The notes beneath the pieces were generated by a model. The model had not been told where the DNA came from. It ran no database searches and saw only the letters and a program-made list of their open reading frames with translations. From a virus (lineage: Duplodnaviria > Caudoviricetes), in the IMG/VR virus record IMGVR_UViG_3300042868_002569, positions 1 to 60,723 of that record: DNA of 60,723 bases; one strand, 5' to 3'. How positions within the stretch are numbered: position 1 is the stretch's first letter; each line of letters opens with the position of its first letter. Shown in pieces: positions 8,030 through 34,079 of this stretch. Made by a program: the position numbers and the translations under genes.

Positions 8030-8083
8030 TAAAGCGTGGAAGAATGGTTCTTTCACATATAACCTAAAAGGGATTTAATCAAA

Positions 8084-8737
8084 ATGAATGAAACTTTTAA
8101 ACTGAATGACCAGCAAGTAGCTGGCTTTATGGCTTGTGGAGCTACATTTGCTGAAAGTGAAACTGATATCGCTGGGGCTGTTAAAGCTTTTGTTGATTTA
8201 GTTACTGTAGGCAAAAATGGTAGCTGGATTAACGGTAGCTTTGTAGAGGATTTAAACAGCAACAAAGTACATAAAGTACCTGATTTTAATTTGTGGGTAG
8301 CTGGTATGGAAGAGGTAAAGCGTGGATACGCTAAGGTTAAAGGCTTATCAGGTGTTGACAATGAAGCCGTTAAGCAAATGTGGAAGCGATTTACTCGCAA
8401 CGTATCGGAGCAATTCGGTATCACTAAACCAGCTAAACCTACGGATACAGGTAAGGCAAAAGCAGAACAACGTAGCAAGGCTTTAATAGCTAAACAGGAA
8501 TTAGCTAAGCGTGATATTGATGATTTACAGGCTGAGATTATTGAGCTATCCGCTAAGCCATCAAAAGAAAATGTTAAGTTGACTAGCAAATTACTTGATG
8601 CTGTTGCATACAAGCAAAAGGCGGAAAATAAGGATTTTGACGTTGAGATTAAAGCTATTAAAAAGGAAATTAAAGAAAAGGTTACAAAGTGTGATGATTT
8701 ATCTTTATTGCAAGATATCGCTAACATGCTTGATTAA
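8084..8737 (+). CDS. Early hypothetical protein, paralogue A
   Basis: 217 aa helical protein, alignable along its length with 9473-10066. Confidence 0.75.
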   Translation: MNETFKLNDQQVAGFMACGATFAESETDIAGAVKAFVDLVTVGKNGSWINGSFVEDLNSNKVHKVPDFNLWVAGMEEVKRGYAKVKGLSGVDNEAVKQMWKRFTRNVSEQFGITKPAKPTDTGKAKAEQRSKALIAKQELAKRDIDDLQAEIIELSAKPSKENVKLTSKLLDAVAYKQKAENKDFDVEIKAIKKEIKEKVTKCDDLSLLQDIANMLD

Positions 8738-9220: not shown

Positions 9221-9240
9221 CCCAGCAGCAAAATGTCTAA

Positions 9241-9264
9241 GCCGCCCTTCGGGGCGGTTTTTTT
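9241..9264 (+). terminator. Rho-independent terminator
   Basis: CCGCCC-TTCG-GGGCGG followed by T7. Confidence 0.9.
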
Positions 9265-9281: not shown

Positions 9282-9310
9282 GGGAACTGGTTGTAAGCGA
9301 CGCAATAGCC
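9282..9310 (+). repeat. 29 bp direct repeat, copy 1
   Basis: GGGAACTGGTTGTAAGCGACGCAATAGCC; 28/29 identical to 10199-10227. Confidence 0.9.
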
Positions 9311-9314
9311 TCGG

Positions 9315-9341
9315 GACAAAGTGGCGTGGTGACACTATGTC
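9315..9341. promoter_or_regulatory. Early-region palindrome (PAL) copy 1
   Basis: GACAAAGTGGCG-TGG-TGACACTATGTC, just upstream of the -35 at 9354. Confidence 0.85.
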
Positions 9342-9353
9342 TGGAACTTATCC

Positions 9354-9382
9354 TTGACTTTTCCCACTTTATAGACTATAAT
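9354..9382 (+). promoter_or_regulatory. Sigma70-type promoter
   Basis: TTGACT-17 bp-TATAAT. Confidence 0.85.
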
Positions 9383-9420
9383 GTATGTATGAGATTGAGA
9401 ATGGTTTGCCCAATTTCACG

Positions 9421-9447
9421 GACAGAGTGTCATGTTGACAAAATGTC
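9421..9447. promoter_or_regulatory. PAL copy 2
   Basis: GACAGAGTGTCA-TGT-TGACAAAATGTC in the leader of the 9473 gene. Confidence 0.85.
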
Positions 9448-9472
9448 CAACTTAGCAAACTTCGGAGATTGT

Positions 9473-10066
9473 ATGAAAAATTCTAAACCCGTAGTACAAA
9501 CAGGCGAAATGGTTGAGATGTTTAACGACCAAGAAATCGCTACCCTTAACGCATCTGCTACTGCATACGCAGACGCAGACGACGACCAAAACGAAGCGGT
9601 CAAAGAAATCGCCAAGGTACTTGGTGCAAAGCCAACTTGGTCACGTTACGAAGCTGGTCGTATCCGCATCTTCGCAGTACTCAAAGAAATCGGCAAAGGT
9701 GACGAGGCTATCAAATCGGTTTGGCGTCGTATGCGTGCCAACTTGGGTATCACGATACCAAGCTCGGACAATCCTGAATCGCAGAAAAAAGCGGAACAGC
9801 GTGCCAAGGCGAAAGTTGAAGCTCGTAAGGTGTACGACGGAAAGTCAGATTCGGTTTTGCAAACTGAAATCAAAACTTTGCTTGCGAACCCAACTTTGGC
9901 GAACATTGCCAACGCAGGGAAAATCACGAAAGAGCTTGAGGTTCGCTTTGACGATGCGAACAAAGCTCACGAAGATGATATGAAGCAGTTGCGTGATAAC
10001 TTGCGTGATTGGATTAAGACTGCGACCTATAAGCAGTTGCAAGATGCTTGGCATCATGTTGCGTAA
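9473..10066 (+). CDS. Early hypothetical protein, paralogue B
   Basis: Start set at MKNSKPV (RBS GGAG); the longer track ORF (9233) runs through a terminator and a promoter; similar to 8084-8737. Confidence 0.75.
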   Translation: MKNSKPVVQTGEMVEMFNDQEIATLNASATAYADADDDQNEAVKEIAKVLGAKPTWSRYEAGRIRIFAVLKEIGKGDEAIKSVWRRMRANLGITIPSSDNPESQKKAEQRAKAKVEARKVYDGKSDSVLQTEIKTLLANPTLANIANAGKITKELEVRFDDANKAHEDDMKQLRDNLRDWIKTATYKQLQDAWHHVA

Positions 10067-10084
10067 GCATTGCTTGCGTAGGGA

Positions 10085-10108
10085 AAGCCCACTTCGGTGG
10101 GCTTTTTT
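10085..10108 (+). terminator. Rho-independent terminator
   Basis: AAGCCCAC-TTCG-GTGGGCTT followed by further Ts. Confidence 0.9.
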
Positions 10109-10117
10109 ATTACATTG

Positions 10118-10144
10118 GACAAAGTGTCACGATGACACTCTGTC
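10118..10144. promoter_or_regulatory. PAL copy 3
   Basis: GACAAAGTGTCA-CGA-TGACACTCTGTC just after the terminator. Confidence 0.9.
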
Positions 10145-10151
10145 CTTTTTG

Positions 10152-10196
10152 TTATGCTCTGGTACAGAGCATAATCTAGTTTGTTTTATTTGTCAA
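10152..10196 (-). promoter_or_regulatory. Leftward sigma70-type promoter overlapped by a perfect 10-3-10 palindrome
   Basis: Minus strand TTGACA (10196-91)-17 bp-TATGCT (10173-68); TTATGCTCTG-GTA-CAGAGCATAA at 10152-10174. Confidence 0.7.
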
Positions 10197-10198
10197 GG

Positions 10199-10227
10199 GG
10201 GAACTGGTGGTAAGCGACGCAATAGCC
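10199..10227 (+). repeat. 29 bp direct repeat, copy 2
   Basis: GGGAACTGGTGGTAAGCGACGCAATAGCC. Confidence 0.9.
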
Positions 10228-10232
10228 CATGC

Positions 10233-10561
10233 AATGTTCCGTAAGTTCCGTGTAATGTTCCAGCTAAGTCGTTGATTATTAAGTAATGTTCTAATGTTCC
10301 TAATGTTCCGAGCTTTTTAGTAACTTTGGAAACGGAGAAAGCAAGACCCCCTTCAGATAGTGCAAGTCCTACGCAACAACTAATTTTAGTAATGGAGCCC
10401 GTCTACTATACTTATTAGAACATTAGAACATTATATATATATAGCTATAAATCTATTTTGTTCCGCTTATAAATCAACAACTTAGCAATGTTCCGCACTC
10501 TCAGAACATTCTAGAACATTACGGAACATTCGGAACAGTCCTTATAAATCAACAACTTAGC
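10233..10561. repeat. Putative replication origin: iteron arrays, AT-rich core and IHF-consensus sites
   Basis: About 14 full or partial AATGTTCY/RGAACATT units in both orientations; TA run at 10432-10443; WATCAANNNNTTR matches at 10265-77 (-), 10472-84 and 10547-59; 21 bp direct repeat CTTATAAATCAACAACTTAGC at 10466 and 10541. Confidence 0.7.
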
Positions 10562-10573
10562 CTAGACAAGCAC

Positions 10574-10602
10574 TTGACATTGTAAGCTATCTGTGGTAAA
10601 CT
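10574..10602 (+). promoter_or_regulatory. Strong sigma70-type early promoter
   Basis: TTGACA-17 bp-TAAACT with extended -10 TG. Confidence 0.85.
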
Positions 10603-10638
10603 AGAGGGGTGAGTGGGAAATTTTTTTTATTAACTTAC

Positions 10639-10666
10639 GACAGAGTGTCACCTTTGACACTTTGTC
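10639..10666. promoter_or_regulatory. PAL copy 4
   Basis: GACAGAGTGTCA-CCTT-TGACACTTTGTC followed by ACCAAGGAG RBS. Confidence 0.9.
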
Positions 10667-10683
10667 CTACCAAGGAGATTGTG

Positions 10684-10878
10684 ATGGCTATGTGTTGGTG
10701 TTGCGGTGAAAGCTTCCCCGATGAACGCAAGGTGCTAGGTTACAGCGTGTGCTTAGTGTGTGGCGATGAATTTGCCCATGCTCGCAAGTTCACAGTAGCA
10801 TGCAGTAACAAACAAGGGTATGAGCTAATCACAGACATATCCTTCCTTAAACAACTTAACCCAAAGAGGACAACATGA
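10684..10878 (+). CDS. C4 zinc-finger protein (DksA/TraR-like finger pattern)
   Basis: CWCCGESFPDERKVLGYSVCLVC; start set at MAMCW after the RBS. Confidence 0.65.
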   Translation: MAMCWCCGESFPDERKVLGYSVCLVCGDEFAHARKFTVACSNKQGYELITDISFLKQLNPKRTT

Positions 10879-11102
10879 CAACAATCAGGCAAATCATTAA
10901 CGAGATGGATACGACATGGTCAATCCACGATGAAGCATCGCACCGAGGCTTTAATTACGCAGAACATTGGATAGAAGAAACAAAGACCTTATTGCGTGAC
11001 GAGGGCATGACCTTGCACTCTGTAATGAAAACTGCATATATAGAAGGCTTTTTGCATGGCTTTGAGCACAAGTTTGATAGCACTAACTACGAGGAGAAAT
11101 GA
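10875..11102 (+). CDS. Hypothetical protein
   Basis: 75 aa, RBS GAGGA, ATGA overlap. Confidence 0.65.
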   Translation: MTTIRQIINEMDTTWSIHDEASHRGFNYAEHWIEETKTLLRDEGMTLHSVMKTAYIEGFLHGFEHKFDSTNYEEK

Positions 11103-11293
11103 TGGCAACACACTATAAGGGCGAACGGATTGATGAACTGTTGGGAGAAATCTCAACCTTGCAAGAAGTCCTAGACCAAAACCGAGAGGCAGGTAACATT
11201 CTGCCTTTCACGGAAATTCATGTGGCACAAGCCTACGCTACGCTTGCGTTGCGGAAAGCACAACTAACTTCGCTAAGGGGTGGTGATGCCTAA
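11099..11293 (+). CDS. Hypothetical protein
   Basis: 64 aa, RBS GAGGAG, ATGA overlap. Confidence 0.65.
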   Translation: MMATHYKGERIDELLGEISTLQEVLDQNREAGNILPFTEIHVAQAYATLALRKAQLTSLRGGDA

Positions 11294-11567
11294 AGCTATA
11301 CCTAAACCTATTATTAACCCAAACAACTTAGGTCAAGAGAGGTCAATAAATGAGCTACTAGGTCAACCTATTCTCAAGGATAGTTTGGACAGTAGCGTTC
11401 TGGCATTGACCGCAGTAATTAACGACCTTGATATGGCAACCAAAAAGGGTGTGACTGCTGACCATCGCAGACTACTTATTTGGAAGGCAAGAAACCAAAC
11501 CGAAGTGATTATCAAACTATTGGACATAGTGTCAAAATGCCACTCTGTCTCACAGGAGAAACCATGA
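11286..11567 (+). CDS. Hypothetical protein
   Basis: ~93 aa; its 3' end reads through PAL copy 5. Confidence 0.55.
   Translation: MPKAIPKPIINPNNLGQERSINELLGQPILKDSLDSSVLALTAVINDLDMATKKGVTADHRRLLIWKARNQTEVIIKLLDIVSKCHSVSQEKP
11523..11549. promoter_or_regulatory. PAL copy 5
   Basis: GACATAGTGTCA-AAA-TGCCACTCTGTC followed by CAGGAG RBS. Confidence 0.85.
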
Positions 11568-11740
11568 GAACCATAGTTAAAGAACGACACCGCAAGAAAG
11601 AACCAAGACCGCAAGACCGTATGCTTGCAGACTTTTTGCGTGCACCAACGGCTGAACAGAAACGCAAAGTCATTGAGCAGTTTGCACCGTTTTACTTTGC
11701 ACTAACCCCACGACAGGAGGAACAAAATGAAACTGTTTGA
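11564..11740 (+). CDS. Small basic hypothetical protein
   Basis: Start MRTIVKERHRKK after RBS AGGAG. Confidence 0.6.
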   Translation: MRTIVKERHRKKEPRPQDRMLADFLRAPTAEQKRKVIEQFAPFYFALTPRQEEQNETV

Positions 11741-11864
11741 AGATAAAGCGGACTACGAGGACTTCGTAGATTTCGCAGTAGGAACAGCTTGGGTATTACT
11801 ACTCACACTCATAGCATCAGGTATTGCTTTGATGGTGATGGTAGCACTAGGTTGGGTATTATAA
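11727..11864 (+). CDS. Small single-pass membrane protein (45 aa, not in ORF track)
   Basis: RBS AGGAGG; MKLFEDKADYEDFVDFAVGTAWVLLLTLIASGIALMVMVALGWVL. Confidence 0.65.
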   Translation: MKLFEDKADYEDFVDFAVGTAWVLLLTLIASGIALMVMVALGWVL

Positions 11865-11880
11865 GTTGTTGTTTAACATA

Positions 11881-11908
11881 GACAAAGTGTCAATGGTGAC
11901 ACTAAGTC
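11881..11908. promoter_or_regulatory. PAL copy 6
   Basis: GACAAAGTGTCA-ATGG-TGACACTAAGTC followed by TTAACCAAGGAGAAGTAAATG. Confidence 0.9.
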
Positions 11909-11926
11909 TTAACCAAGGAGAAGTAA

Positions 11927-12466
11927 ATGGACTTACCAATTGAAGTAATCAACGCAGTAAAACCAAAACCAAAGGCACGCAAGCCGTATGCACGTAAGCT
12001 AACTAAGCGTATCTTGCAAGCTATCGGTAGTGGGCTACGCACTTCAGCATCTATTGCTAAGGCATTGGATGTTGATAAAGCTAGGATTCAGTCTAACTTG
12101 CATCACATCAAGAACCGTGGGCTTGTCCATGCAACCAAGCAAGAAGGCAAGGTCGAGCTCAAGTATCACTTGGCAACGGAGACGGCAAAGCCGAAGGCAC
12201 GCAAGCCATATGCCAAGCGTGTGGCAAAAGTGGCAAAAGTGGCAAAAGTGGCAACGGTGGAAGTAAAACCAACTCTAATGCTAGGCAATTACGCCCGAGA
12301 ACTAGAAGTTAAGGTAGACCACATCACGAGCAAGCTCGTTTACTTGGAACAATCCTTGATAGATAAGGAGAAGGAAGTGTGGACTCTTGAGTGCGAAGTC
12401 TTTGATAAGAAAGCAATTATTAAATACTTGGAAGAGAAACTCTTTGCCCTTGGGGTGCGTGTATGA
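11927..12466 (+). CDS. Winged-helix DNA-binding protein with basic repeats and C-terminal coiled coil
   Basis: ILQAI..GLRTSASIAKALDVDKARIQSNLHHIKNRGLV is a wHTH pattern; KPKARKPYA occurs twice. Confidence 0.7.
   Translation: MDLPIEVINAVKPKPKARKPYARKLTKRILQAIGSGLRTSASIAKALDVDKARIQSNLHHIKNRGLVHATKQEGKVELKYHLATETAKPKARKPYAKRVAKVAKVAKVATVEVKPTLMLGNYARELEVKVDHITSKLVYLEQSLIDKEKEVWTLECEVFDKKAIIKYLEEKLFALGVRV
12221..12254 (+). repeat. 9 bp in-frame tandem repeat (GTGGCAAAA) x3 plus partial
   Basis: Encodes VAKVAKVAKVA. Confidence 0.9.
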
Positions 12467-13407
12467 GCCTAACCTCAATGCCTAACCACGCAGGCTTGCC
12501 TGTGTTGAAGGACTACTACCAAGCCAAGCAACACTTTGAAAATGTGAAGTCTATTCGTGGTAGGAAAGAAGACATCAAGCCACTTGGTCGTGAACGCAGG
12601 TATGACCAATACCTCATTCAGCAAACCATGCGAGCCGACCAATCGCAGGGTGTCACGCATATAGATTATGTGTGTGCCTTGTATAACTCGCCTGTCGTGA
12701 CCTTCATGCAAGATGGGCGAGTCACGCTAAATAGTAGTTGGAATAGTGTGCCTACTCGCTGCGTTATGCAGTATGTATTACGTGAGCATGGTGTGGTGGA
12801 TAGCCAAAGCGGTAAGTGGTACTTCATCAACAAGCGGAAAGAGGCTTTCTTAATTGGCAAAGAGATAACTCTGAAGTTTGATGCCGAGGGTATCTTGACA
12901 GGCGATATGCAACAGGAACATAAGCACTTGCTTAAACGCAAAGTGATGAACGACCTGCGGAATAAGTACAAGTTCTTTACGGACTATGCCTATACCATGC
13001 TATCGCTTGACCCAAGCACGCTACGCTTGGAAGTTGCCGAGGCTAGTCATGGACTAAACTTTAAAACACAACCAACATTTATCGGGCATAGACAGGGGTA
13101 TTGGGTGCAACAAATGAAAGACCACACCCCACCCAATAACAGGGCAAAGCTTTTCCAAGCATTGGATAGACCTAACGCTTCGGCCGATGCGTTGTTGCTT
13201 TACGAGCTTGCAACTTGTATTGCGTATGTCGTGGGTAGGTATGACTACACAATATGTAAGTCTGTGTGTGAGCCTAAGGCTTTCATTGAATCATTTAATG
13301 AGATTCTTAAGTATCACTTTGCAGATGCAGTATTTGAGAAGGTAGAGCAACCGCTTGGCTCATTGTTTATTGACAAGAACGCTAAGTACATTCCATACAA
13401 GAAGTAA
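12463..13407 (+). CDS. Hypothetical protein
   Basis: 314 aa ORF; stop codon abuts PAL copy 7. Confidence 0.75.
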   Translation: MSLTSMPNHAGLPVLKDYYQAKQHFENVKSIRGRKEDIKPLGRERRYDQYLIQQTMRADQSQGVTHIDYVCALYNSPVVTFMQDGRVTLNSSWNSVPTRCVMQYVLREHGVVDSQSGKWYFINKRKEAFLIGKEITLKFDAEGILTGDMQQEHKHLLKRKVMNDLRNKYKFFTDYAYTMLSLDPSTLRLEVAEASHGLNFKTQPTFIGHRQGYWVQQMKDHTPPNNRAKLFQALDRPNASADALLLYELATCIAYVVGRYDYTICKSVCEPKAFIESFNEILKYHFADAVFEKVEQPLGSLFIDKNAKYIPYKK

Positions 13408-13434
13408 GACAGAGTGTCATGGTGACACTATGTC
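13408..13434. promoter_or_regulatory. PAL copy 7
   Basis: GACAGAGTGTCA-TGG-TGACACTATGTC starting right after the TAA. Confidence 0.9.
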
Positions 13435-13462
13435 CATTTAACCAAACCGAAAGGAACTAAAA

Positions 13463-14557
13463 ATGTCAGAAGTATTTATGCACCGCACCGTAACCCTCAA
13501 AGAAGCAGAGGACTTAATCGTATCAATGGGTTCTGATGCAACGGCTCACCTTGTAGGAGAACCGGGGGTTGGTAAGACCTCTATGTTCAACAATATTGTT
13601 AAGAGAACTGGCTATAAAGGGATTTACATTGACGCACCGAACATCGAGTTGGGCGAGTTGGGTGTTCCGATTCCCAATCACGAAACCAAAACGACACGCA
13701 TCTATCCAAACGAGCAATGGGGTTTTCATCTTGACGAGCCATTGGTTATCTTTGTTGACGAGTTCACCAAGGCACACCAAGCAGTTAAGAATATGTTGCA
13801 TCCGATGCTCAATGAACCAAGGCAAATCATGGGTATCCCATTGCACAAGGATACGATAGTCGTAACGGCAGGCAATTACTCAGGCGATGGTGTTGGCGAC
13901 CACATGATGAGTCACTCTCGCAATCGTATTACTGTGCTGACAGTCAAGAAACCACACGCAGGCTTTAACATTGATGGTTCTATTGACGATGATTCATGGG
14001 GTAAGTGGGCTATCTCAAGTGACATTGCACCTGAGATTCTTGCGTGGGTGAAGGAGAATCCGCACACTCTCGCATCCTATACTGACGCATCACAGGCAGG
14101 CAACAAGTATATCTTCAACCCAAAGGAATCGCAGAAGTCTTTTGTCAGTCCTCGTTCCCTTGCTAGAGCAAGTAATATTCTTAAGAAACGCCATATGGTC
14201 ACAGTCAACGCAACGATTACCGCACTACAGGGTACGATTGGAGCACCTGCTGCGAATGACTTGATGTCATATGTGGAAGTAGCCGATTCACTACCAACAT
14301 GGGAAAGTATTATCAAAGACCCGAAAACTGCACAAGTGCCAACATCACCTGCCGCTTTATGTCTATTGGCTTTCTCAGCAGTTCAGCGTGTGGACAGAGA
14401 AACTATTAGTAAGTTCTTTGAGTACCTACAACGCACACCGAAAGAGTTGCAGTCTGTGTTCTGTATTACAGGTATGAAGAACGACGATAAGAAGAAGCTA
14501 TTCCTTACTAGCCAATCATTCGTTGAGTGGATGCGTACCAATCAGTATTTATTCTAA
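13463..14557 (+). CDS. MoxR-type (dynein-related) AAA+ ATPase
   Basis: Walker A GEPGVGKT, Walker B IFVDE, sensor TAGN, R-finger region RNR, sensor-2 SPRS. Confidence 0.85.
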   Translation: MSEVFMHRTVTLKEAEDLIVSMGSDATAHLVGEPGVGKTSMFNNIVKRTGYKGIYIDAPNIELGELGVPIPNHETKTTRIYPNEQWGFHLDEPLVIFVDEFTKAHQAVKNMLHPMLNEPRQIMGIPLHKDTIVVTAGNYSGDGVGDHMMSHSRNRITVLTVKKPHAGFNIDGSIDDDSWGKWAISSDIAPEILAWVKENPHTLASYTDASQAGNKYIFNPKESQKSFVSPRSLARASNILKKRHMVTVNATITALQGTIGAPAANDLMSYVEVADSLPTWESIIKDPKTAQVPTSPAALCLLAFSAVQRVDRETISKFFEYLQRTPKELQSVFCITGMKNDDKKKLFLTSQSFVEWMRTNQYLF

Positions 14558-14584
14558 GACGGGGTGTCATGTTGACACTTTGTC
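14558..14584. promoter_or_regulatory. PAL copy 8
   Basis: GACGGGGTGTCA-TGT-TGACACTTTGTC right after the TAA, then AACCAAGGAGAAGTAAATG. Confidence 0.9.
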
Positions 14585-14601
14585 CAACCAAGGAGAAGTA
14601 A

Positions 14602-14877
14602 ATGGAAGAAAAAGAAATGAAAGCTAGGAAGGAACAGTTAATCCAAATGCGAGATGCATTGGGTTCTTACTTCGAGAAGGAAGATATGGAAGTGGGCATG
14701 GTAATGTCCGTGCTACTTACCATGCTAGTTGAAACAATGATAGAGCACGCAAAAATGGAACCTCATACTGCCATGCTTGTTATGACTAAGGCTGTTGCTC
14801 ATGCATACGAGGGACTTAACGATGATGAAGAAGATGATAACGATGACACTAAAGGAGAAACACAATGGCTAAACTAA
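14602..14877 (+). CDS. Hypothetical protein
   Basis: 91 aa with acidic tail, strong RBS. Confidence 0.65.
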   Translation: MEEKEMKARKEQLIQMRDALGSYFEKEDMEVGMVMSVLLTMLVETMIEHAKMEPHTAMLVMTKAVAHAYEGLNDDEEDDNDDTKGETQWLN

Positions 14878-16094
14878 CTGCCGAGCAACGCATCGAGAAG
14901 GCTCATGTCCGCTTGATGCGACACCCAAACTATTGCTTGTTCTCAGGCTTATTCATGGTGGGTAAAGTAACAGTCGATGATGCAGTCGAGACTGCTAAGA
15001 CCAACGGTGTAGATGTAATCTATGGTAGAGAATTCGTTGACCGACTTAACGACAAGGAACTTGCTTTCCTTATCTTGCATGAGAATATGCACAAGGCTTA
15101 TCGCCACTTGATTGTGTGGGAATCTCTGTATCGCAAGAATCCACAGCTTGCTAACATGGCGTGTGACTATGTAATCAATCTGCAAATCCGTGATTACGAC
15201 CCACAATGCAATGAAACCGAGATGCCCAAAGATGCAGATGGTGAAGTCATGGGCTTGATTGACGAACAGTATCGTGGCATGGATGCATACCAAGTCTATA
15301 TATTGCTAGAGAAGGAGGAAAAGCAAGGCGGTAGCGGTGGTAGCGGTGATGGTAGCGGTCAGCCACAAGGCAATGGGAATGGTAAGCCACAACTTGACGA
15401 CCACGATTGGGAAGGTGCAAAGCAACAGACCGCCCAAGAGAAGGAACAAACAACTCGTGAAATTGAAGGTGCGTTGCGACAAGGTGCGTTACTTGCAGGC
15501 AAGATGAAAGGTAATCTCAGCCGAGAGATGCAAGACTTACTCACACCCAAGGTGAATTGGCGAGATGCATTGCGTGACTTCGTCAAGTCCTCAACTCAAG
15601 GCAAAGACCAAACCACATGGCGAAGATTGCATAAGCGTTACATTGGTATGGATATTATTATGCCGAGCACCTATGACGAGAAGGTGGGTAGCATCATGGT
15701 AGCCGTAGACACATCAGGTTCTATCGGTGGTGCAGAGCTTGCTCAGTTCTTGAGTGAGGTCAAGTCTATCTGTGAAGAAGTAAGTCCTGAGAAGATTGAC
15801 TTAATCTATTGGGATACTGAAGTTGCAGGTCATGAAACCTATCAAAGCAACGAGCTATCAAACATTACGCAAGTAACAGAAGCTAAGGGTGGTGGCGGTA
15901 CAGACCCATCATGCGTGCCTAAGTATGTAACTAAAAACAGACTTGAGCCTGAGTGCGTAATCATGCTAACCGACGGCTACATTGGGAGACAGAATGAAAA
16001 CGATTATCAGATTGGTAAGCCGTTTATGTGGTGCATCAAAGGTAATCCAAACTTCAACGAAGATGTCGTTGGAAAGGTTGTCCATGTCGAATGA
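14865..16094 (+). CDS. Metallopeptidase-like + VWA domain protein (DUF2201-type), partner of the AAA ATPase
   Basis: HENMH (HExxH), NMACDYVIN, MIDAS DTSGS, GGGGT, LTDGY. Confidence 0.85.
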   Translation: MAKLTAEQRIEKAHVRLMRHPNYCLFSGLFMVGKVTVDDAVETAKTNGVDVIYGREFVDRLNDKELAFLILHENMHKAYRHLIVWESLYRKNPQLANMACDYVINLQIRDYDPQCNETEMPKDADGEVMGLIDEQYRGMDAYQVYILLEKEEKQGGSGGSGDGSGQPQGNGNGKPQLDDHDWEGAKQQTAQEKEQTTREIEGALRQGALLAGKMKGNLSREMQDLLTPKVNWRDALRDFVKSSTQGKDQTTWRRLHKRYIGMDIIMPSTYDEKVGSIMVAVDTSGSIGGAELAQFLSEVKSICEEVSPEKIDLIYWDTEVAGHETYQSNELSNITQVTEAKGGGGTDPSCVPKYVTKNRLEPECVIMLTDGYIGRQNENDYQIGKPFMWCIKGNPNFNEDVVGKVVHVE

Positions 16095-16341
16095 CGATAC
16101 CCCATTTATTATTAGCGTAGCTAATGTCGTGCTAGACAAAGACGAACTAGCCGAGCTCATGTCTTTCTTGCGTAGTAAGAAGTTCTTGTATCGTGAATAC
16201 AAAGGCGCAAACAAGGGCTTTGATGGTGGCGAGTATGACTTCTCGTTTGTCAGATGTGATGAGAAATCAAGGGTAGAGATTTCGCCTGTCAATGAAGCAT
16301 TGTGGTTGTACTTAAATACTTTTGGAAAGGAAACTAAATGA
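16084..16341 (+). CDS. Hypothetical protein
   Basis: Start set at MSNDDTPF. Confidence 0.55.
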   Translation: MSNDDTPFIISVANVVLDKDELAELMSFLRSKKFLYREYKGANKGFDGGEYDFSFVRCDEKSRVEISPVNEALWLYLNTFGKETK

Positions 16342-16523
16342 CTACCGTACCTAAAGGTCGTGCTAAAGATGGCAAGGTCAATGTCAGTCTTAATCCTGAG
16401 ACTGTGGAGATGCTTGCCGTTATCAAAGATAAGATGGCTGAGGATATGGGGTTCAAGCTAACCTATTCTCAAGCAATCCAACATTTAATTAAGTATTACG
16501 AAAACGACAGAGTGTCAAACTGA
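16338..16523 (+). CDS. Possible ribbon-helix-helix DNA-binding protein
   Basis: KVNVSL beta-strand then two helices (ETVEMLAVIKDKM / TYSQAIQHLIKY); 3' end overlaps PAL copy 9. Confidence 0.5.
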   Translation: MTTVPKGRAKDGKVNVSLNPETVEMLAVIKDKMAEDMGFKLTYSQAIQHLIKYYENDRVSN

Positions 16524-16532
16524 CACTCTGTC
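16506..16532. promoter_or_regulatory. PAL copy 9 (perfect 12-3-12)
   Basis: GACAGAGTGTCA-AAC-TGACACTCTGTC then TTAACCAAGGAGAAGTAAATG. Confidence 0.95.
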
Positions 16533-16550
16533 TTAACCAAGGAGAAGTAA

Positions 16551-17420
16551 ATGAACACGAATAACAGTATAAGTATTGCATCATCAGCGATGCTAGTTGA
16601 ACTAAGCATCAGCGGTTGGACTGCACGCAAGTTGGATAAGAAAGTATCTGCCGAGATTGATGTGGCTAAAGGCACGCAGACTCAAGCAGGTAATTACAAC
16701 AAGAACCTACTAGCAGGCACAGGGTTCTTGGATACTATCACTAAGTATGCCTCTAGTTCTAGAGCATGGCATATTTCTCAGACCTTACCTTGGTCAGATA
16801 GTGGTGTGCGTTTGTTACCTGTGTCTAACTTCATCGCTTACAAGGAACAACTAAATAAGCTAGAAGAAAACTACACCGCCCTAGTCCACAAGTTTGTAGA
16901 TGCGTACCCTAACTTAGTGACAGCGGCTGCGTTTCAATTGGGCAATCTATTCGACAGAACAGAATACCCCGATGCGGATAAGATATTCCACAAGTTCAAG
17001 TTCAGTTGTAACTTCTTTCCTGTCCCGCAGGCAGGTGACTTCCGAGTAGACATAGGCGAGGAAGCCAAGCAAGAACTAGCTAACTCATGCCAACACGCAT
17101 ACGAGGAAAGACTTAACAACGCTATGGGTGAGGTATGGCAACGATTGCATAAGTGTCTATCCAATGTTAGCGAAAGGCTTACGCTCAATAGTGACGGGGA
17201 AGAAAAGTTATTCCGAGATAGCTTGGTTGGTAATGCTCACGAACTAATCGAACTGCTGACACACCTTAACATCACGAAAGACCCCAAGCTTGAGCAAGCT
17301 CGCATAGAGTTGAACGAGGCTATCGGGCATCATGATGCCGATTCCCTACGCAGAAGTGTGGTTGCCAAAGAAGCAGTCAAGAGCAAAGTTGATTCAATCT
17401 TATCTAAATTTGAATTTTGA
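16551..17420 (+). CDS. Phage protein of a type found beside AAA/VWA pairs (possibly DUF3150-like)
   Basis: 289 aa; LVELSISGWTARKLD...TLPWSDSGVRLLP motifs; family assignment from memory. Confidence 0.6.
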   Translation: MNTNNSISIASSAMLVELSISGWTARKLDKKVSAEIDVAKGTQTQAGNYNKNLLAGTGFLDTITKYASSSRAWHISQTLPWSDSGVRLLPVSNFIAYKEQLNKLEENYTALVHKFVDAYPNLVTAAAFQLGNLFDRTEYPDADKIFHKFKFSCNFFPVPQAGDFRVDIGEEAKQELANSCQHAYEERLNNAMGEVWQRLHKCLSNVSERLTLNSDGEEKLFRDSLVGNAHELIELLTHLNITKDPKLEQARIELNEAIGHHDADSLRRSVVAKEAVKSKVDSILSKFEF

Positions 17421-17431
17421 AAGAAACAAAC

Positions 17432-18295
17432 ATGGTCAATGTAAATAAACTAGAACTATCCGACAACAAGCGACACTTACCCTACGGTGATAACCTAGAA
17501 GAGTTTCTTAACCTTGTCGCCCTAGCCAAACCATTATGCACATTTGCGGTTGATAACCAATGCGTGCGTAGTGAGTGGGTTCGCAACACCGATAACGGCT
17601 CTGAGTATATGGAAGTCCTTAACACTATCAAGGTATACGAAGATGGTGAAGCCATCGGTTCTATCTCAGTAGGTAGGCGATACCGAAGTGGTGGGCGAGA
17701 AGGTGTGTATGGTGTTGAGTCTTTCCGTATCCACAGGGAACGAGGTGATAGGAACACGACCTATGTCAAGGACATCAAGGTTGCCATGCGTAATGTCAAG
17801 AAGTTCTTTACAGGTAGGCAGGATAACGAAGTTAAAGAATTGATTACGCACAATGTAAAAAAAGGCATGGAAGCAGTAACTCATAGTGCAATTCAAAGTA
17901 TTAGTTGGTCAATAGATTCAAGAGAGATTGCATTTAACTATGTCATGCAAGCCTATCACGCACACAAACGAGATGATACCGCTGTGGCTATGCCTGTCAG
18001 AATACCTACAGTCGTAGACCAAGAAAAACTGTTTAGTAAATGCGAGGAAGTGATACAAGCCACGACGCTTGACGACCACTACAAAGGTAACAACGGATAT
18101 GGTGTTCAAATGCGGGTAGACAACAGTGTCGTAACCTATTCTTACGCATCAGATAAGATTACAAAGTACCGTAGCTTTGATGATGTACCGACCAACATTC
18201 AAGAAAAACTTGCCATGTTCAAAGTCTTGGAGAAAGGCGAAGCTTATGCCGACTTTGGTGTTAAGTTTGATGATGGGTTCTTCTACATACCGTAA
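17432..18295 (+). CDS. Hypothetical protein
   Basis: ~287 aa, last gene of the early block; start may be TTG at 17417 instead. Confidence 0.7.
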   Translation: MVNVNKLELSDNKRHLPYGDNLEEFLNLVALAKPLCTFAVDNQCVRSEWVRNTDNGSEYMEVLNTIKVYEDGEAIGSISVGRRYRSGGREGVYGVESFRIHRERGDRNTTYVKDIKVAMRNVKKFFTGRQDNEVKELITHNVKKGMEAVTHSAIQSISWSIDSREIAFNYVMQAYHAHKRDDTAVAMPVRIPTVVDQEKLFSKCEEVIQATTLDDHYKGNNGYGVQMRVDNSVVTYSYASDKITKYRSFDDVPTNIQEKLAMFKVLEKGEAYADFGVKFDDGFFYIP

Positions 18296-18301
18296 ATAAA
18301 C

Positions 18302-18330
18302 TTGAATAAAAATAGCAGTAGCACTATACT
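18302..18330 (+). promoter_or_regulatory. Sigma70-type promoter of putative sRNA1
   Basis: TTGAAT-17 bp-TATACT; no convincing ORF before the downstream terminator. Confidence 0.75.
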
Positions 18331-18336
18331 GATAGT

Positions 18337-18534
18337 GAACTCTACCTCCTTGGTTAAGTTCCTTTCAAGGTTGCTCTTGGTTTTGCCTAGTAGATGTATT
18401 ACCAAGAGATGGCTAACGCCAGCAATCTCCCTTACCGTAAGTAGGATGCGGAATCTACTTTTGCCTACATAGCTTTAGCTAACATTGCATTACCTCCGAC
18501 CCCCTAGTCCTGCAAGATTAGGGGGTTTTCTTTT
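18337..18534 (+). ncRNA. Putative structured antisense sRNA (sRNA1) against early-gene ribosome-binding leaders
   Basis: Bounded by promoter and terminator; 18346-58 is the exact reverse complement of 11908-20 and 16532-44; 18357-66 is the reverse complement of 13449-58; internal stems present. Confidence 0.7.
18500..18534 (+). terminator. Rho-independent terminator
   Basis: CCCCCTAGTC-CTGCAA-GATTAGGGGG followed by TTTTCTTTT. Confidence 0.85.
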
Positions 18535-18535
18535 G

Positions 18536-18562
18536 GACAAAGTGTCAAGTTGACACTGTGTC
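18536..18562. promoter_or_regulatory. PAL copy 10
   Basis: GACAAAGTGTCA-AGT-TGACACTGTGTC between the terminator and the next promoter. Confidence 0.9.
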
Positions 18563-18602
18563 CTATTAGGGTATGCACCTATAAAATAATTTAAAGTTTC
18601 GC

Positions 18603-18631
18603 TTGATTTCCTAAAACATGGGAACTATACT
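18603..18631 (+). promoter_or_regulatory. Sigma70-type promoter, replication operon 1
   Basis: TTGATT-17 bp-TATACT. Confidence 0.75.
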
Positions 18632-18663: not shown

Positions 18664-18978
18664 ATGACAACTCCTGAGACAAAGGTTAAACAAGCCGTCG
18701 TCAAAATACTTGACAAGCACGGTGCCTACCACTTCTTTCCAGCCACCCACGGCTATGGTCGTAGCGGTGTGCCTGATATTGTAGCGTGCCACAATGGTAG
18801 GTTCATCGGCATCGAATGTAAGGCGGGCAAAGGTGTTCCTACTGCACTACAAGAACGAGAGCTACGCTTAATACAACAAGCTGGCGGTATCTCTATGATT
18901 ATTCGTGAGGATACCACTAACCTACTTGACCACATTTTGTCCACCCCCACCAGTTCCCAAGAAAGGACAAATGTATGA
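18664..18978 (+). CDS. VRR-NUC domain nuclease
   Basis: TPETKVK...GRSGVPDIVAC..GRFIGIECKA...TALQ. Confidence 0.85.
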   Translation: MTTPETKVKQAVVKILDKHGAYHFFPATHGYGRSGVPDIVACHNGRFIGIECKAGKGVPTALQERELRLIQQAGGISMIIREDTTNLLDHILSTPTSSQERTNV

Positions 18979-19193
18979 ATGATGGCGTAAAACTTTTGCT
19001 TGACCGCATGGAAACCAATCCCGAAGAGTTTACAACCAAAGATTTCTCAGGGCACACTCGTTGGTCGCATCTTACAAACTACTACGACGGTGTGCTAACC
19101 GACGAAGAAAGAAACTCACTTAAAACTAAACAGACAGAACTCCTACGCAAAGAACTTACGCAAGCAGTTATGCAGGAGCTACTAAAGAAATGA
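18975..19193 (+). CDS. Hypothetical protein
   Basis: 72 aa, ATGA overlaps on both sides. Confidence 0.65.
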   Translation: MNDGVKLLLDRMETNPEEFTTKDFSGHTRWSHLTNYYDGVLTDEERNSLKTKQTELLRKELTQAVMQELLKK

Positions 19194-21025
19194 ACATCTT
19201 AACCATAGACTTCGAGACTTTTTATTCGCAGACTTACTCGTTGTCCAAGCTGACGACTGAAGAGTACATTCGTGGCGATGATTTTGAGGTCATTGGTGTA
19301 TCTGTCCAAGTGGATGATGGCAAACCACAATGGTTTAGTGGGACACATTCCGAGATAAAAGACTGGCTCAACCAATTTAACTGGAGCGACGCCCTTGCTC
19401 TAGCCCACAATGCCATGTTTGATTCCGCAATTCTTTCTTGGATATTCGACATCAGACCAAAAGCGTGGTTAGATACACTGGCTATGGCTCGTGCAACCGA
19501 TGGCTTAGAAGCAGGTAATAGCCTAGCAAAACTAGGTGAGAGATACAACGTCGGCACGAAAGGCACTGAAGTGTTAAACGCACTTGGTAAACGACGCCAT
19601 GACTTTAGCCTCATCGACCTAGCAAAATATGGCTCATACTGCAATAACGATGTAAGCATGACTTACTTGTTGTTTCAAATCTTGGTTAAACGGTTTTCAA
19701 TGTCTGAGCTTAAGTTAATTGACCTAACACTATCTATGTTCTACAACCCTGTGTTGCGTTTAGATACACCATTGCTTGAACAACACTTGATGCAAGTTAA
19801 GTCTCGCAAAGAGAAACTACTTGAGGCTTGCATATCAGATAAAGATACTTTGATGTCTAACCCCAAATTAGCCGAGTTGCTAGTCAGTTTGGGTATTGAG
19901 CCACCGATGAAGATAAGTCCTGCTAACGGAAAGGAAACATATGCCTTTGCAAAGAACGATGAAGGGTTTAAAGCCCTTGCAGAAAATCCTGATGAAAGAG
20001 TCCAAGCCATTGTCGCTGCTCGCTTGGGCACGAAGTCTACCCTTGAAGAGACAAGAACAGAACGTTTTATTGGTATATCTCTCAGGGGCAAGATGCCCGT
20101 ACCGCTTAGATACTATGCGGCACATACAGGACGATGGGGAGGAGACGACAAACTTAATCTCCAAAACCTACCGAGAAAATCGTTGCTCAAGAAAGCGATT
20201 GTTGCACCCAAAGGCTACGTGCTAGTCGATGCCGACTCATCACAGATTGAAGCTCGTACGGTTGCATGGCTATCAGGACAGAATGACCTTGTGAAAGCAT
20301 TTGATGACAAACAAGACGTATACAAAATCATGGCATCTTCTATATACGGCAAGAGAGAAGATGAAATCACGGCGGATGAAAGGTTCGTGGGTAAGACGAC
20401 AATCCTTGGAGCAGGTTACGGTATGGGTGCTATTAAGTTCTCGCTACAGCTCAAAACTTTTGGAGTGGAAATTGATGATGCGGAGGCGGCTAGGATTATT
20501 AGTGTCTACCGTGAAACATACGGATGGATTCCTAACTTGTGGAAAGAAGCTAATCGTTCCCTTGAAGCCCTTTGTAACAAGCAAACTGCGAAAGTTGGGT
20601 GCCAGTCGCAAGCACTTTCACTTACGGATAGCGGTTTTTTATTGCCCAGTGGACTACATCTCAACTACCCCGACTTAAGAAAAGATAGCGACGACCAGTG
20701 GAGTTACTCAAATCGACGTGGTCGCATTAAGATTTACGGTGGTAAGGTTGTAGAGAATGTATGCCAAGCATTAGCTCGTTGCGTTATTGGTGAGCAGATG
20801 CTTCGTATATCAAAAAGATACAAGGTTGCGTTAACCGTACACGATGCGGTGATGGCGGTTGTTAAGGAAGAAGAACGTGATGATGCCATAAGATACGTAG
20901 CCGAATGCATGAGTTGGAGACCTAAGTGGGCGCAGACACTACCGCTTGCTTGTGAGATTGGCGCAGGCCAAAACTATTCGGATTGTAGTGATAAGAAATC
21001 AATTGAAAAATGGGGGTTGGTATGA
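19190..21025 (+). CDS. DNA polymerase, family A, with 3'-5' exonuclease
   Basis: ExoI IDFET, ExoII HNAMFD, ExoIII YCNND; TGRW, NLQNLP, motif A DSSQIEAR, motif B RFVGKTTILGAGYG, motif C VHDA. Confidence 0.95.
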   Translation: MNILTIDFETFYSQTYSLSKLTTEEYIRGDDFEVIGVSVQVDDGKPQWFSGTHSEIKDWLNQFNWSDALALAHNAMFDSAILSWIFDIRPKAWLDTLAMARATDGLEAGNSLAKLGERYNVGTKGTEVLNALGKRRHDFSLIDLAKYGSYCNNDVSMTYLLFQILVKRFSMSELKLIDLTLSMFYNPVLRLDTPLLEQHLMQVKSRKEKLLEACISDKDTLMSNPKLAELLVSLGIEPPMKISPANGKETYAFAKNDEGFKALAENPDERVQAIVAARLGTKSTLEETRTERFIGISLRGKMPVPLRYYAAHTGRWGGDDKLNLQNLPRKSLLKKAIVAPKGYVLVDADSSQIEARTVAWLSGQNDLVKAFDDKQDVYKIMASSIYGKREDEITADERFVGKTTILGAGYGMGAIKFSLQLKTFGVEIDDAEAARIISVYRETYGWIPNLWKEANRSLEALCNKQTAKVGCQSQALSLTDSGFLLPSGLHLNYPDLRKDSDDQWSYSNRRGRIKIYGGKVVENVCQALARCVIGEQMLRISKRYKVALTVHDAVMAVVKEEERDDAIRYVAECMSWRPKWAQTLPLACEIGAGQNYSDCSDKKSIEKWGLV

Positions 21026-24234: not shown

Positions 24235-24410
24235 AACTTAAGAAACCAAACGCTGTCCAATTACTTGATTACGACGGCATGAATCAACAAGAAGTTGCAG
24301 ATGCGCTAGGTATTAGTAGAGCCTCAGTGCAACACATTGAACGTCGTGCTTATAAAAAGTTTAAGCGTGAGTTAGCTAAAAGAATAAAGCACATTACCGA
24401 TTTATTATGA
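24231..24410 (+). CDS. Stand-alone sigma-70 region 4-like HTH protein (59 aa, not in ORF track)
   Basis: MKLKKPNAVQLLDYDGMNQQEVADALGISRASVQHIERRAYKKFKRELAKRIKHITDLL; ATGA overlap with upstream gene. Confidence 0.75.
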   Translation: MKLKKPNAVQLLDYDGMNQQEVADALGISRASVQHIERRAYKKFKRELAKRIKHITDLL

Positions 24411-34002: not shown

Positions 34003-34079
34003 GTAGACGATTGGTTTCGGCTACTTTCCTTAGTGAGTGAGTGATTTAAGCCCCGGCGTAAAACCCCGGGGTCTTTTTT
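34003..34079 (+). ncRNA. Putative antisense sRNA (sRNA2) against replication-operon leaders
   Basis: Possible promoter TTGCGT (33967-72)-18 bp-TATCAT (33991-96); 34012-22 is the reverse complement of 18654-64; 34025-33 and 34037-43 are reverse complements of 29385-93 and 29375-81. Confidence 0.6.
34050..34079 (+). terminator. Rho-independent terminator at the replication/virion convergence
   Basis: CCCCGG-9 nt-CCGGGG followed by TCTTTTTT. Confidence 0.8.

Follow-up and report, generated by a model that had tools for sequence, protein, structure and literature searches.

A confined array of lineage-specific palindromes in the early region of an uncultured freshwater phage, possibly an operator or roadblock array with a phage-encoded reader

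The early region of an uncultured freshwater phage carries ten copies of a bipartite palindrome, here called PAL, which form a real, strongly non-random and conserved array of cis-elements. We analysed the complete stretch of an IMG/VR virus record (60,723 bp, rated 96% complete, in the following called the window), and compared it with related viral contigs. At the same gene junctions, these relatives contain either the same palindrome, termed dialect A, or one of a number of different ones, amounting to 15 dialects altogether. Among the explanations considered, we assign a probability of roughly 45% to PAL being an array of operators or roadblocks on DNA, by which early transcription is shut off or insulated. 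The type of array itself is known yet unexplained; new here are the many syntenic dialects and a specific candidate for the protein reading them, the small early protein fam0.

An initial annotation, made from the letters of the window alone, had listed ten copies of the palindrome between positions 9315 and 18562 and none elsewhere. We confirmed all ten positions (Table 1) as well as the confinement, because scanning the whole record with up to 2 mismatches returned exactly those 10 sites, located within 9.25 kb of the 60.7 kb, while the reversed pattern used as a control returned 0 sites at the same setting. A looser scan allowing up to 5 mismatches and loops of 2–6 nt yielded nothing further outside 9315–18562. 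The strict pattern GACANNGTGTCA-N3/4-TGACACNNTGTC was matched exactly 5 times compared to 0.00 expected from 100 shuffles, and the half-site GACANNNTGTCA was found 16 times compared to 0.54 ± 0.78 expected, with all matches within 9330–18562.

The placement of the copies relative to genes and transcription signals also agreed with the initial annotation. Seven copies end 14–28 nt ahead of a start codon equipped with a GGAG-type ribosome-binding site (RBS), copies 7 and 8 begin at the base right after a stop codon, and copies 1, 3, and 10 come after terminators consisting of a hairpin and a T-run. A T-run directly after the palindrome itself is present in only one of the ten copies (copy 3), the other nine lacking a U-run in the transcript; in relatives, PALs at 2 positions per genome are followed by such a run. 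Across all dialects, the distance to the next start codon is at most 40 nt for 129 of 206 copies, and 88 of 207 either begin at most 10 nt after the stop codon of the preceding gene or overlap it. Before these start-codon counts, the pairing counts, and the promoter counts across dialects were made, ten unrelated hairpins drawn in by the k-mer filter were removed.

In line with the proposed operators, copies sit at operator-like places, about 30 nt past the start points of two early promoters (PE1 and PE2) and additionally between a terminator and a promoter. Using a criterion of at least 9/12 matches with a 17-bp spacer, the second and fourth PALs start 33–46 nt past the -10 box of a promoter in all 14 cases from 7 dialect-A genomes; one additional weaker promoter call brings the number of flagged copies in these genomes to 15 of 69. 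Across dialects, a promoter with at least 10/12 matches lies within 90 nt upstream of 30 of 199 PALs, compared to 7 of 1075 random positions. The last PAL of the cluster, upstream of the gene for an Hjc-like nuclease (fam5), was present in 32 of the 35 loci that include this gene. All 32 are located at most 16 nt past a stable hairpin with a T-run and precede an A/T-rich stretch and a -35-like TTGCAA or TTGACT box, and the spacer harbouring this copy should be untranscribed. Past the last PAL (window 18563–18631), all dialects keep, together with the -35-like box, an AGGG-N4-6-CCCT dyad and the A/T-rich sequence TATAAAAT, and judged by these signals the region looks like a conserved replication-gene promoter. 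One may speculate that a 71-amino-acid (aa) helix-turn-helix (HTH) protein of the phage (30688–30903) is the natural reader of the invariant AGGG-N4-6-CCCT dyad.

Table 1. PAL copies, early promoters and selected genes in the window.
Feature	Coordinates	Strand	Remarks
fam0-1	8084..8737	+	paralogue of fam0-2
PAL copy 1	9315..9341		GACAAAGTGGCG-TGG-TGACACTATGTC; weakest copy; after terminator 9239–9260, just upstream of PE1
Early promoter PE1	9354..9382	+	sigma70-like, TTGACT-17-TATAAT, 11/12
PAL copy 2	9421..9447		starts 38 nt past PE1 -10 (about +32 of transcript); ends 25 nt from fam0-2 ATG
fam0-2	9473..10066	+	first early gene after PE1; PALs on both sides
PAL copy 3	10118..10144		after fam0-2 terminator; followed by T-run (CTTTTTGTT), hence terminator-like
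Early promoter PE2	10574..10602	+	TTGACA-17-TAAACT with TG
PAL copy 4	10639..10666		4-nt spacer; starts 36 nt past PE2 -10; ends 17 nt before ATG of zinc-ribbon gene 10684–10878
PAL copy 5	11523..11549		right arm TGCCAC variant; overlaps end of open reading frame 11286–11567; ends 14 nt before ATG at 11564
PAL copy 6	11881..11908		4-nt spacer; right arm CTAAGTC; ends 18 nt before ATG of HTH/coiled-coil gene 11927–12466
PAL copy 7	13408..13434		base after fam6 stop codon; upstream of ATPase gene; junction carries a palindrome in every dialect
MoxR-type AAA ATPase	13463..14557		rightward block; family scans
PAL copy 8	14558..14584		GACGGGG left arm; base after ATPase stop codon; upstream of 14602–14877
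DUF2201 metallopeptidase/VWA protein	14865..16094		rightward block; family scans
PAL copy 9	16506..16532		perfect 12-bp dyad; upstream of DUF3150 gene; overlaps 3' end of ribbon-helix-helix gene 16338–16523, encoding its last codons and stop codon
DUF3150 protein	16551..17420		rightward block; family scans, weak match
PAL copy 10	18536..18562		between terminator 18498–18527 and replication-gene promoter region
Hjc-like nuclease	18664..18978		rightward block, first of the replication genes
Family-A DNA polymerase	19190..21025		rightward block; helicase and primase/helicase further along
LPD39-domain protein, 2137 aa, minus strand	34078..40491		virion-type

An exact-pattern scan of viral contigs revealed PAL in seven other records. 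Six of these contain 9 or 10 copies in a single span of 9.3–10.0 kb and none in the remainder of the record, and the remaining one, a fragment of 13 kb, contains 2 copies. The motif is therefore neither evenly spread over the genome nor lacking in relatives, two of the outcomes which the initial annotation had named as speaking against its proposal. The gene maps of the same-dialect records show that the copies are syntenic: on the left, they are found after the unit of fam0-1 and fam11, before and after fam0-2, and before 2–3 cassettes of small genes; in the middle, before the genes for the HTH/coiled-coil protein, the ATPase, the protein following the ATPase, and the DUF3150 protein; and on the right, between the last terminator and the gene for the Hjc-like nuclease.

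A protein-guided search of viral contigs with the ATPase resulted in 43 loci, whose ATPases are 74–85% identical to that of the window. Only 9 of the 43 loci contain the palindrome of the window, whereas the remainder carry a different palindrome at the same junctions, which is again repeated along the cluster, adding up to about 9–11 palindromes per early cluster of some 10 kb. An automatic finder recovered a family of at least 3 copies in 38 of the 43 loci; for L034, L038, L042, L059, and L063, the label was taken from the sequences at the junctions, or the locus was omitted. The 15 dialects were sorted by eye from the palindrome sequences, with arms such as GGACAAACTTAG-N6-CTAAGAATGTCC, GACAGAGTAACA-N3-TGTAACTTTGTC, AACAAANCGACA-N4-TGTCGANATGTT, TACTTGGCGACA-N3-TGTCGCTAAGTA, or CACTANCTGACA-N4-TGTCANNTGGTG. 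Whole-record scans of two genomes with other dialects resulted in the same confinement, with 9 copies within 9.7 kb of 60.3 kb for dialect F and 11 copies within 9.7 kb of 63.5 kb for dialect D, and 0 sites for the controls.

All dialects follow a common plan, consisting of an outer module (GACA, AACA, CACA, CACT, or TACT), 2–3 mostly unpaired bases (AA.AA or TT.TT), a variable inner module of 5–6 bases, and a centre of 3–7 bases, with a total length of 27–29 bp. Within one genome the stems are constant and the loops are variable. The initial annotation had regarded the element as two dyads inside a larger dyad, bound by two dimers. This does not hold for the family, because the GACA-N3-TGTC sub-dyad occurs only in dialect A and the arms of other dialects, e.g., GGACAAACTTAG, AACAAANCGACA, or TACTTGGCGACA, are not dyads; the nested arrangement is thus a peculiarity of dialect A. 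In a core tree of 38 loci and 1071 columns, calculated from the ATPase, VWA, and DUF3150 proteins, the window pairs with L030, a phage of dialect L (support 99), and the dialect-A phage L033 groups with dialects H and E2 (support 100). Judging by this tree, the dialect belongs to the cluster as a whole, irrespective of the relationships of the genes around it.

The variation among the copies of dialect A favours sequence-specific recognition over a plain RNA stem, as already proposed from the window. In 71 dialect-A copies, arm positions 1–3, 8, 9, and 11 are invariant, and the three central bases occur in 28 different sequences; the 4-nt spacers of copies 4 and 6 are the only ones in this set. 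Position 10 shows 19 changes (11 of G:A and 8 of T:C), none of which is compensated on the other arm. Position 5, whose uncompensated variation had been pointed out before, is A:A in 44 and a Watson-Crick pair in only 7 of the 71 copies. Invariant arms together with free loops and a lack of compensation are the signature of a sequence-specific reader and not of a stem kept for its pairing, which implies, as judged from sequence comparison, that the elements are read by a phage-encoded factor.

Regarding the nature of the target, we infer DNA as somewhat more likely than RNA. The placement of copies shortly past promoters and in the presumably untranscribed spacer between terminator and promoter speaks for DNA. 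The asymmetric middle (AA.AA or TT.TT) is found in either orientation before RBSs, and both orientations even occur at orthologous junctions of phages of the same dialect (position 9064 of L070 vs. 8817 of L067), which a dyad-symmetric reader would allow. In addition, bacteria contain this 27-bp pattern in single copies near TetR-family genes (2 of the 4 contexts scanned), namely in Kordiimonadales and Lachnospiraceae genomes, so such a sequence can be an ordinary operator on double-stranded DNA. This resembles the long palindromic operators of TetR-family proteins such as QacR IR1, whose dyads comprise about 27–28 bp. In four alphaproteobacterial genomes (L077–L080, from Kordiimonadales and Minwuia), the pattern is extended to CTTGACAnGGTGTCAACTTGACACTATGTCAAG and lies in the divergent spacer between the genes for a TetR-family and an NAD(P)H-binding protein, where it is probably the operator of that TetR.

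The best candidate for the reader came from a comparison of gene trees. Full dialect labels do not discriminate between protein families, since all gene trees show each dialect as a tip clade, and only the deeper classes of outer and inner modules are informative. Therefore, these classes were mapped onto the trees of eight universal early families and compared with shuffles at the level of dialects. On the fam0 tree, the outer-module classes required 3 changes, which is the minimum and was reached in 0 of 300 shuffles, whereas the other seven families required 6–9 changes and were no better than the shuffles. The fam0 tree is at odds with that of the core genes, which reject the GACA-type phages as a monophyletic group with a log-likelihood difference of 570 and a p-value of 6e-29 in the approximately unbiased test. 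Independent contrasts on the core tree agreed with the link to fam0 in 5 of 5 cases. The fam0 gene is duplicated in GACA-type phages, and in the window a simple longest-frame call of the stretch 8053–8737 gave a minus-strand open reading frame (8053–8727) instead of fam0-1.

Structure prediction yielded an all-helical model of fam0 with a predicted local distance difference test score (pLDDT) of 88 and a symmetric homodimer with an interface score (ipSAE) of 0.70, compared to 0.00 for the best control. Of the proteins whose solved structure is a pair of one chain, 20 of 30 reached a score of 0.70, as did 1 of 23 with a single-chain structure, but since the fam0 dimer was run on an alignment of our own, these calibration counts hold only roughly. 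The dimer runs agreed in at least 84% of the contacts, with a partner pLDDT of at least 82. The modelled interface involves residues 12–87 and 166–197 and leaves a conserved basic helix at about 100–120 free. This predicted geometry is compatible with a dyad reader, but is no proof of DNA binding. Taken with the tree test, it makes fam0, presumably acting as a homodimer, the most likely reader.

Four other proteins had been proposed as binders in the initial annotation, all of which fail either covariation with the dialects or universality. The HTH/coiled-coil protein (11927–12466) has N-terminal domain types that are common across dialects and differ within dialect A; its family combines a conserved C-terminal coiled coil or zipper (...IIKYLEEKL) with an exchangeable N-terminal HTH domain, and at least 5 unrelated N-terminal types occupy this slot among the relatives. 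The classic ribbon-helix-helix (RHH) protein (16338–16523, KVNVSLNPETVEML...) occurs in only about half of the dialects: it is present in A, D, D2, E, E2, H, I, L, and M, but loci of dialects B, C, F, G, J, and K do not contain it. It was absent from 5 of 5 records of these latter dialects, one of them 96% complete, with the positive control found in 4 of 4. The tetramer boxes of PAL with their spacing of about 8 bp recall the operators of RHH proteins of the MetJ/ParG/omega type. The sigma4-like protein (24231–24410) was found in 5 of 15 records, and 3 of the 4 near-complete records lack it. The 71-aa HTH protein, found in 12 of 15 records, is near-universal, but eight dialects have almost identical recognition helices (VSRMT[IV]Y.WF). 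Three further early proteins showed no tree association, namely the zinc-ribbon protein 10684–10878 with weak DksA/TraR-type matches, fam6 (12478–13407), and fam4 (17417–18295). For fam6, we obtained 14 matches, all to unannotated relatives, and no named neighbour above 0.9 in the ESM Atlas; fam4 had no match in the PDB at E ≤ 0.001 despite a confident model (pLDDT 90). Homologues of TetR, KorA, or KorB were not found in the phage, the best TetR_N match being the 71-aa HTH protein with a score of 12.9 bits, which does not reach the cut-off.

If PAL is indeed an operator or roadblock array, it would represent a two-fold symmetric site of 27–29 bp on double-stranded DNA, serving a lineage-specific, phage-encoded regulator. 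Each arm would combine a conserved outer module of the (G)ACA type with a variable inner one, and the 2–3 bases between them would not be contacted. Host RNA polymerase would initiate at the two sigma70-like early promoters, meet a PAL about 30 nt further on, and then encounter another one at almost every cistron boundary, up to the last copy right past the operon terminator and before the replication-gene promoter. Accumulation of the early reader would fill the sites, and the occupied PALs may then act as roadblocks for elongation and reinforce termination, switching the early cluster off and insulating the next unit. With a fam0 homodimer as the reader, the weakest site would be located in its own leader, which may lead to autoregulation. 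Repression or a roadblock is the effect that we presume for PAL. It appears doubtful to us whether fam0 even represents a new family of helical DNA readers with dyad symmetry and without known relatives in fold, which would recognize a bipartite operator with 15 specificities in closely related lytic phages.

Several observations weigh against this proposal. On the side of the reader, the link to fam0 depends on few independent events (5 contrasts, p = 0.06), the outer-module classes were defined from the sequences after seeing the data, and the inner module is tracked by none of the eight early families. Moreover, fam0 is located at the left edge of the cluster, so the association could partly be due to linkage. 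The protein has no recognizable DNA-binding fold: Foldseek returned no PDB match at E ≤ 0.001, the best VIA-align Z-score was 7.2, to generic helical bundles, and Pfam and PHROGs returned nothing. A profile search of the PDB gave nothing below E 0.038, and the ESM Atlas provided only weak leads (DUF3102 with 0.83 and a Streptomyces phage repressor domain with 0.81). On the side of the site, all ten copies fold as RNA hairpins with -9.0 to -19.8 kcal/mol, G:U outnumbers A:C by 41 to 18 on the sense strand of 159 unique copies, and Watson-Crick pairing at position 5 is rarer than base frequencies predict. The spacer length varies (3 or 4 in the window, 3–7 across dialects), 2–3 PALs per genome are followed by a T-run and look like terminators, and most copies lie close ahead of start codons.

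These properties of the site are shared with an explanation in which PAL acts in RNA, as an intercistronic or leader hairpin with a conserved A.A or AA.AA mismatch, read by a phage-specific RNA-binding protein or endoribonuclease in the manner of Cas6/Csy4 on CRISPR repeats or of lambda N on boxB. It would process, stabilize, or translationally gate each early cistron, with the U-run copies doubling as terminators. The stable folding of all ten copies would fit, as would the excess of G:U over A:C, that of A:A over T:T (135 vs. 57 in the same 159 copies), and a spacer length which a loop tolerates. The same is true for the location of the copies between stop and start codons (88 of 207 and 129 of 206, respectively) and the T-runs after some of them. 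The layout of outer stem, mismatch, inner stem, and loop is kept while the dialect sequences change, and copy 8 (GACGGGG...CTTTGTC) keeps three G:U pairs in the sense RNA, as noted initially, all three of its A-to-G changes preserving pairing. However, the loops, which are the usual identity element of hairpins bound by proteins, are free (28 variants), no stem change within a dialect is compensated, and AA.AA and UU.UU forms are interchangeable at orthologous sites. Little RNA is expected from the conserved copy between a strong intrinsic terminator and a promoter in each genome, and copy 1 of the window even lies upstream of PE1. Family scans revealed no RNase-like or RNA-binding family, Rfam gave no match, and the G:U excess could reflect a C-to-T bias on the non-template strand. 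We consider recognition in RNA as possible but doubtful. Plain structural hairpins without any trans-acting reader, used for pausing, termination, or punctuation of the mRNA and kept alike by gene conversion or by duplication of a cassette of PAL and RBS, would agree with the stable folding and with the flank after many copies, which is also alike (CCAAC...GGAG). Yet the stems are invariant while loops and free positions vary, which argues against gene conversion or duplication, since these would homogenize the loops as well. In addition, all of the about ten sites share one dialect even where the flanking genes are nearest to those of a phage with another one, as in the case of the window and L030, which leaves this explanation quite unlikely.

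The initial annotation had also suggested that the PALs serve as recombination joints between gene cassettes, to which a mobile palindromic element similar to repetitive extragenic palindromic (REP) sequences or miniature inverted-repeat transposable elements may be added. The gene content between PALs indeed differs in a cassette-like manner in same-dialect genomes, with the fam12–fam45 and fam62–fam32 blocks being combined differently in G001, G002, and G004. Of 400 ends of blastn homology, 10% lie at most 10 nt from a PAL compared to 3.7% for random positions, and the enrichment is 2.4–2.7 times within 10–30 nt. This did not stand up as a property of the PALs, because 24 of the 101 homology ends near a gene start were at starts preceded by a PAL, compared to 48 such starts among all 154; the enrichment is therefore one of gene boundaries in general. 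The positions are syntenic across dialects, unlike those of a mobile element, and neither a transposase or REP-associated tyrosine transposase (RAYT) in the family scans nor a tyrosine integrase was found. REP elements occur in hundreds of copies per cellular genome together with a cognate RAYT transposase, whereas the PAL pattern gave only 8 single hits in 185,579 species genomes, one in each and never several, which also rules out mimicry of a host REP. We regard a role as joint or mobile element as very unlikely. A further explanation invokes hairpin promoters for an RNA polymerase injected with the virion, as in phage N4, whose hairpin promoters have stems of 5–7 bp and 3-nt loops and occur only in the early region. 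The confinement of PAL to the early region, its 3-nt loops, and the presence of a large virion-type protein of 2137 aa are reminiscent of this, and the cultured relatives of the ATPase, largely phages of about 72–77 kb, are presumably N4-like, judging by name. Still, the 2137-aa protein matches LPD39 and PLxRFG or DarB-like polyvalent proteins, with no PDB match below E 0.7, and no polymerase match was obtained for this or an 830-aa protein; a search with PF00940 gave no match either, but its control was also silent. Strong sigma70-like promoters upstream of PALs argue for the host polymerase, and PALs overlap the ends of coding regions and come after terminators, so that N4-type promoters are extremely unlikely. 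The likeness of the right arm ACTATGTC to the nick consensus of LUZ24/tf-type phages was set aside, nicks at a palindrome being equivalent to double-strand breaks.

Short inverted repeats associated with gene starts have been described in other phage groups, namely in actinobacteriophages. Cluster EG Microbacterium phages contain 8–10 copies of the 18-bp inverted repeat GATCAACCNNGGTTGATC at the right genome end, located 14–22 bp upstream of start codons in short intergenic gaps (PMC7302621), and Cluster O mycobacteriophages 34 copies of the 17-bp palindrome TGTTCGGNNNCCGAACA (PMC4351075). The extended start-associated sequences of Cluster K include 17-bp inverted repeats, whose consensus differs between subclusters and in which the deviations found in both arms lend no support to pairing in RNA (PMC3203893). 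All three types are reported to be of unknown function (PMC7302621, PMC4351075, PMC3203893). PAL resembles such start-associated repeats in its multiple copies with invariant arms and a variable centre, its vicinity to start codons (7 of 10 copies in the window and the majority across dialects), and its location in the non-structural region, with one cluster of 9.3–10 kb in the window and likewise in each of 8 other complete or nearly complete records. It differs from them, as described there, by the unrelated phage group and presumably hosts, the greater length (27–29 bp) and bipartite build, in which an unpaired middle separates the outer from the inner module, the fixed coupling to promoters (about +30) and a terminator, and the presence of 15 dialects at syntenic places with a candidate reader suggested by tree congruence.

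The stoperators of Cluster A phages are many phage-specific sites in or near short intergenic regions and downstream of an early promoter, at which a phage-encoded protein stops elongating RNA polymerase, and motif and binder diverge together between subclusters (PMC6550527, PMC9283540). They are asymmetric sites of 13–14 bp, oriented with transcription and spread genome-wide in up to about 30 copies, and their binder is the monomeric HTH repressor of temperate phages (PMC6550527, PMC9283540). In contrast to this description, PAL is palindromic, has its asymmetric middle in both orientations, and is confined to one 10-kb cluster; the phage shows no HTH protein covarying with the dialect and no tyrosine integrase was found. 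By analogy, the pair of stoperator and repressor may be taken as the nearest system understood mechanistically, and the start-associated inverted repeats as the closest features described. We found no publication describing the PAL motif itself, with most subscription journals outside our search.

Other systems share single aspects with PAL. The early genes of T7 contain RNase III sites between cistrons, comprising about two helical turns (~20 bp), often including an internal loop, and processed by a host enzyme, which need neither identical stems nor lineage-specific sequences, and the promoter/stem-loop cassettes (PeSL) of T4-type phages are repeated at gene boundaries. PAL is similar to these in punctuating early cistrons with hairpins and in forming cassettes at gene boundaries, but compared to the T7 sites its stems are shorter (12–13 bp), contain a 1x1 or 2x2 mismatch, and are identical within a genome. 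In the KorA and KorB networks of IncP plasmids, one regulator acts on some 7–12 dispersed palindromes at, near, or far from promoters.

In the window, a leftward block for structure and packaging (1–7.7 kb), with a portal and a large terminase identified by gene calls and family scans, is followed by a rightward block from about 8 to 34 kb, in which small genes of unknown function come first, and a virion block in leftward orientation (34–60 kb). The DNA of the window occurs in many lake-water metagenome runs; there were no RNA data among the 24 sequencing runs listed for it. A collection of cultured phages contained no nucleotide match, and the nearest cultured phages by DNA polymerase are Rhizobium phage RHph_TM3_14A and Pseudomonas phage KPP25 with 34–35% identity. 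Roseobacter phage CRP-7 (L094) has the same layout of MoxR-type ATPase and polymerase, and the early module of the window (13463–18295, coding for the MoxR ATPase, the DUF2201 VWA/metallopeptidase, the DUF3150 protein, and 2 orphan proteins) resembles that of CRP-7 in outline; no repeated palindrome family and no PAL-like array were found in the first 12.3 kb of the latter. The ATPase is also common to many phages of about 72–77 kb infecting Vibrio, Pseudomonas, and others. The C-terminal ~800 residues of the 2137-aa protein are common to PLxRFG and DarB-like 'polyvalent' virion proteins, which are present in the ~60-kb phages F116, PBC5, and Atu_ph08, and the N-terminal 1150 residues gave no match. 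The search for a tyrosine integrase in the window was negative, with the control positive in 14 of 14 genomes, and Rfam contained no family reaching its gathering score anywhere in the window.

Further repeats adjoin the PALs. A 29-nt direct repeat, GGGAACTGGT(T/G)GTAAGCGACGCAATAGCC, is present at 9282–9310 and 10199–10227 with 97% identity, next to copies 1 and 3, and the related words GGGAACTGG or CCACCAGTT come after PALs in relatives. Directly after copy 3, a second palindrome, GTTATGCTCTG-N3-CAGAGCATAAT, is located at 10151–10175; it is kept with a variable centre after the first PAL of same-dialect relatives. The ~450 non-coding nucleotides between copy 3 and PE2 (10230–10560) are dense in the iterons AATGTTCC and GAACATT in both orientations and include a perfect 21-nt direct repeat (10466–10486 and 10541–10561). 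Judging by these repeats, the stretch may be an origin or a second array of binding sites.

Cluster-specific inverted repeats before non-structural phage genes have been catalogued for more than 10 years in Clusters K, O, and EG, and neither a function nor a binder has been assigned to them. The freshwater phage group described here represents a natural experiment, having the same ten places filled with at least a dozen different palindromes between neighbouring genes that are 75–90% identical, and covariation between cis-elements and trans-acting factors can therefore be read directly from the sequences. This analysis excludes the obvious HTH and RHH candidates and nominates the small early protein fam0. 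If true, this would provide a new DNA-reading fold, a mechanism for shutting off early genes in phages relying on the host RNA polymerase, and a set of orthogonal pairs of operators and regulators. Should the fam0 family act as proposed, each phage would possess a private 'early-gene code' as a lytic counterpart of the immunity groups of temperate phages, whose diversification would be driven by cross-repression between co-infecting relatives, and the same logic would apply to the start-associated inverted repeats of many phage clusters, which would then be operators as well.

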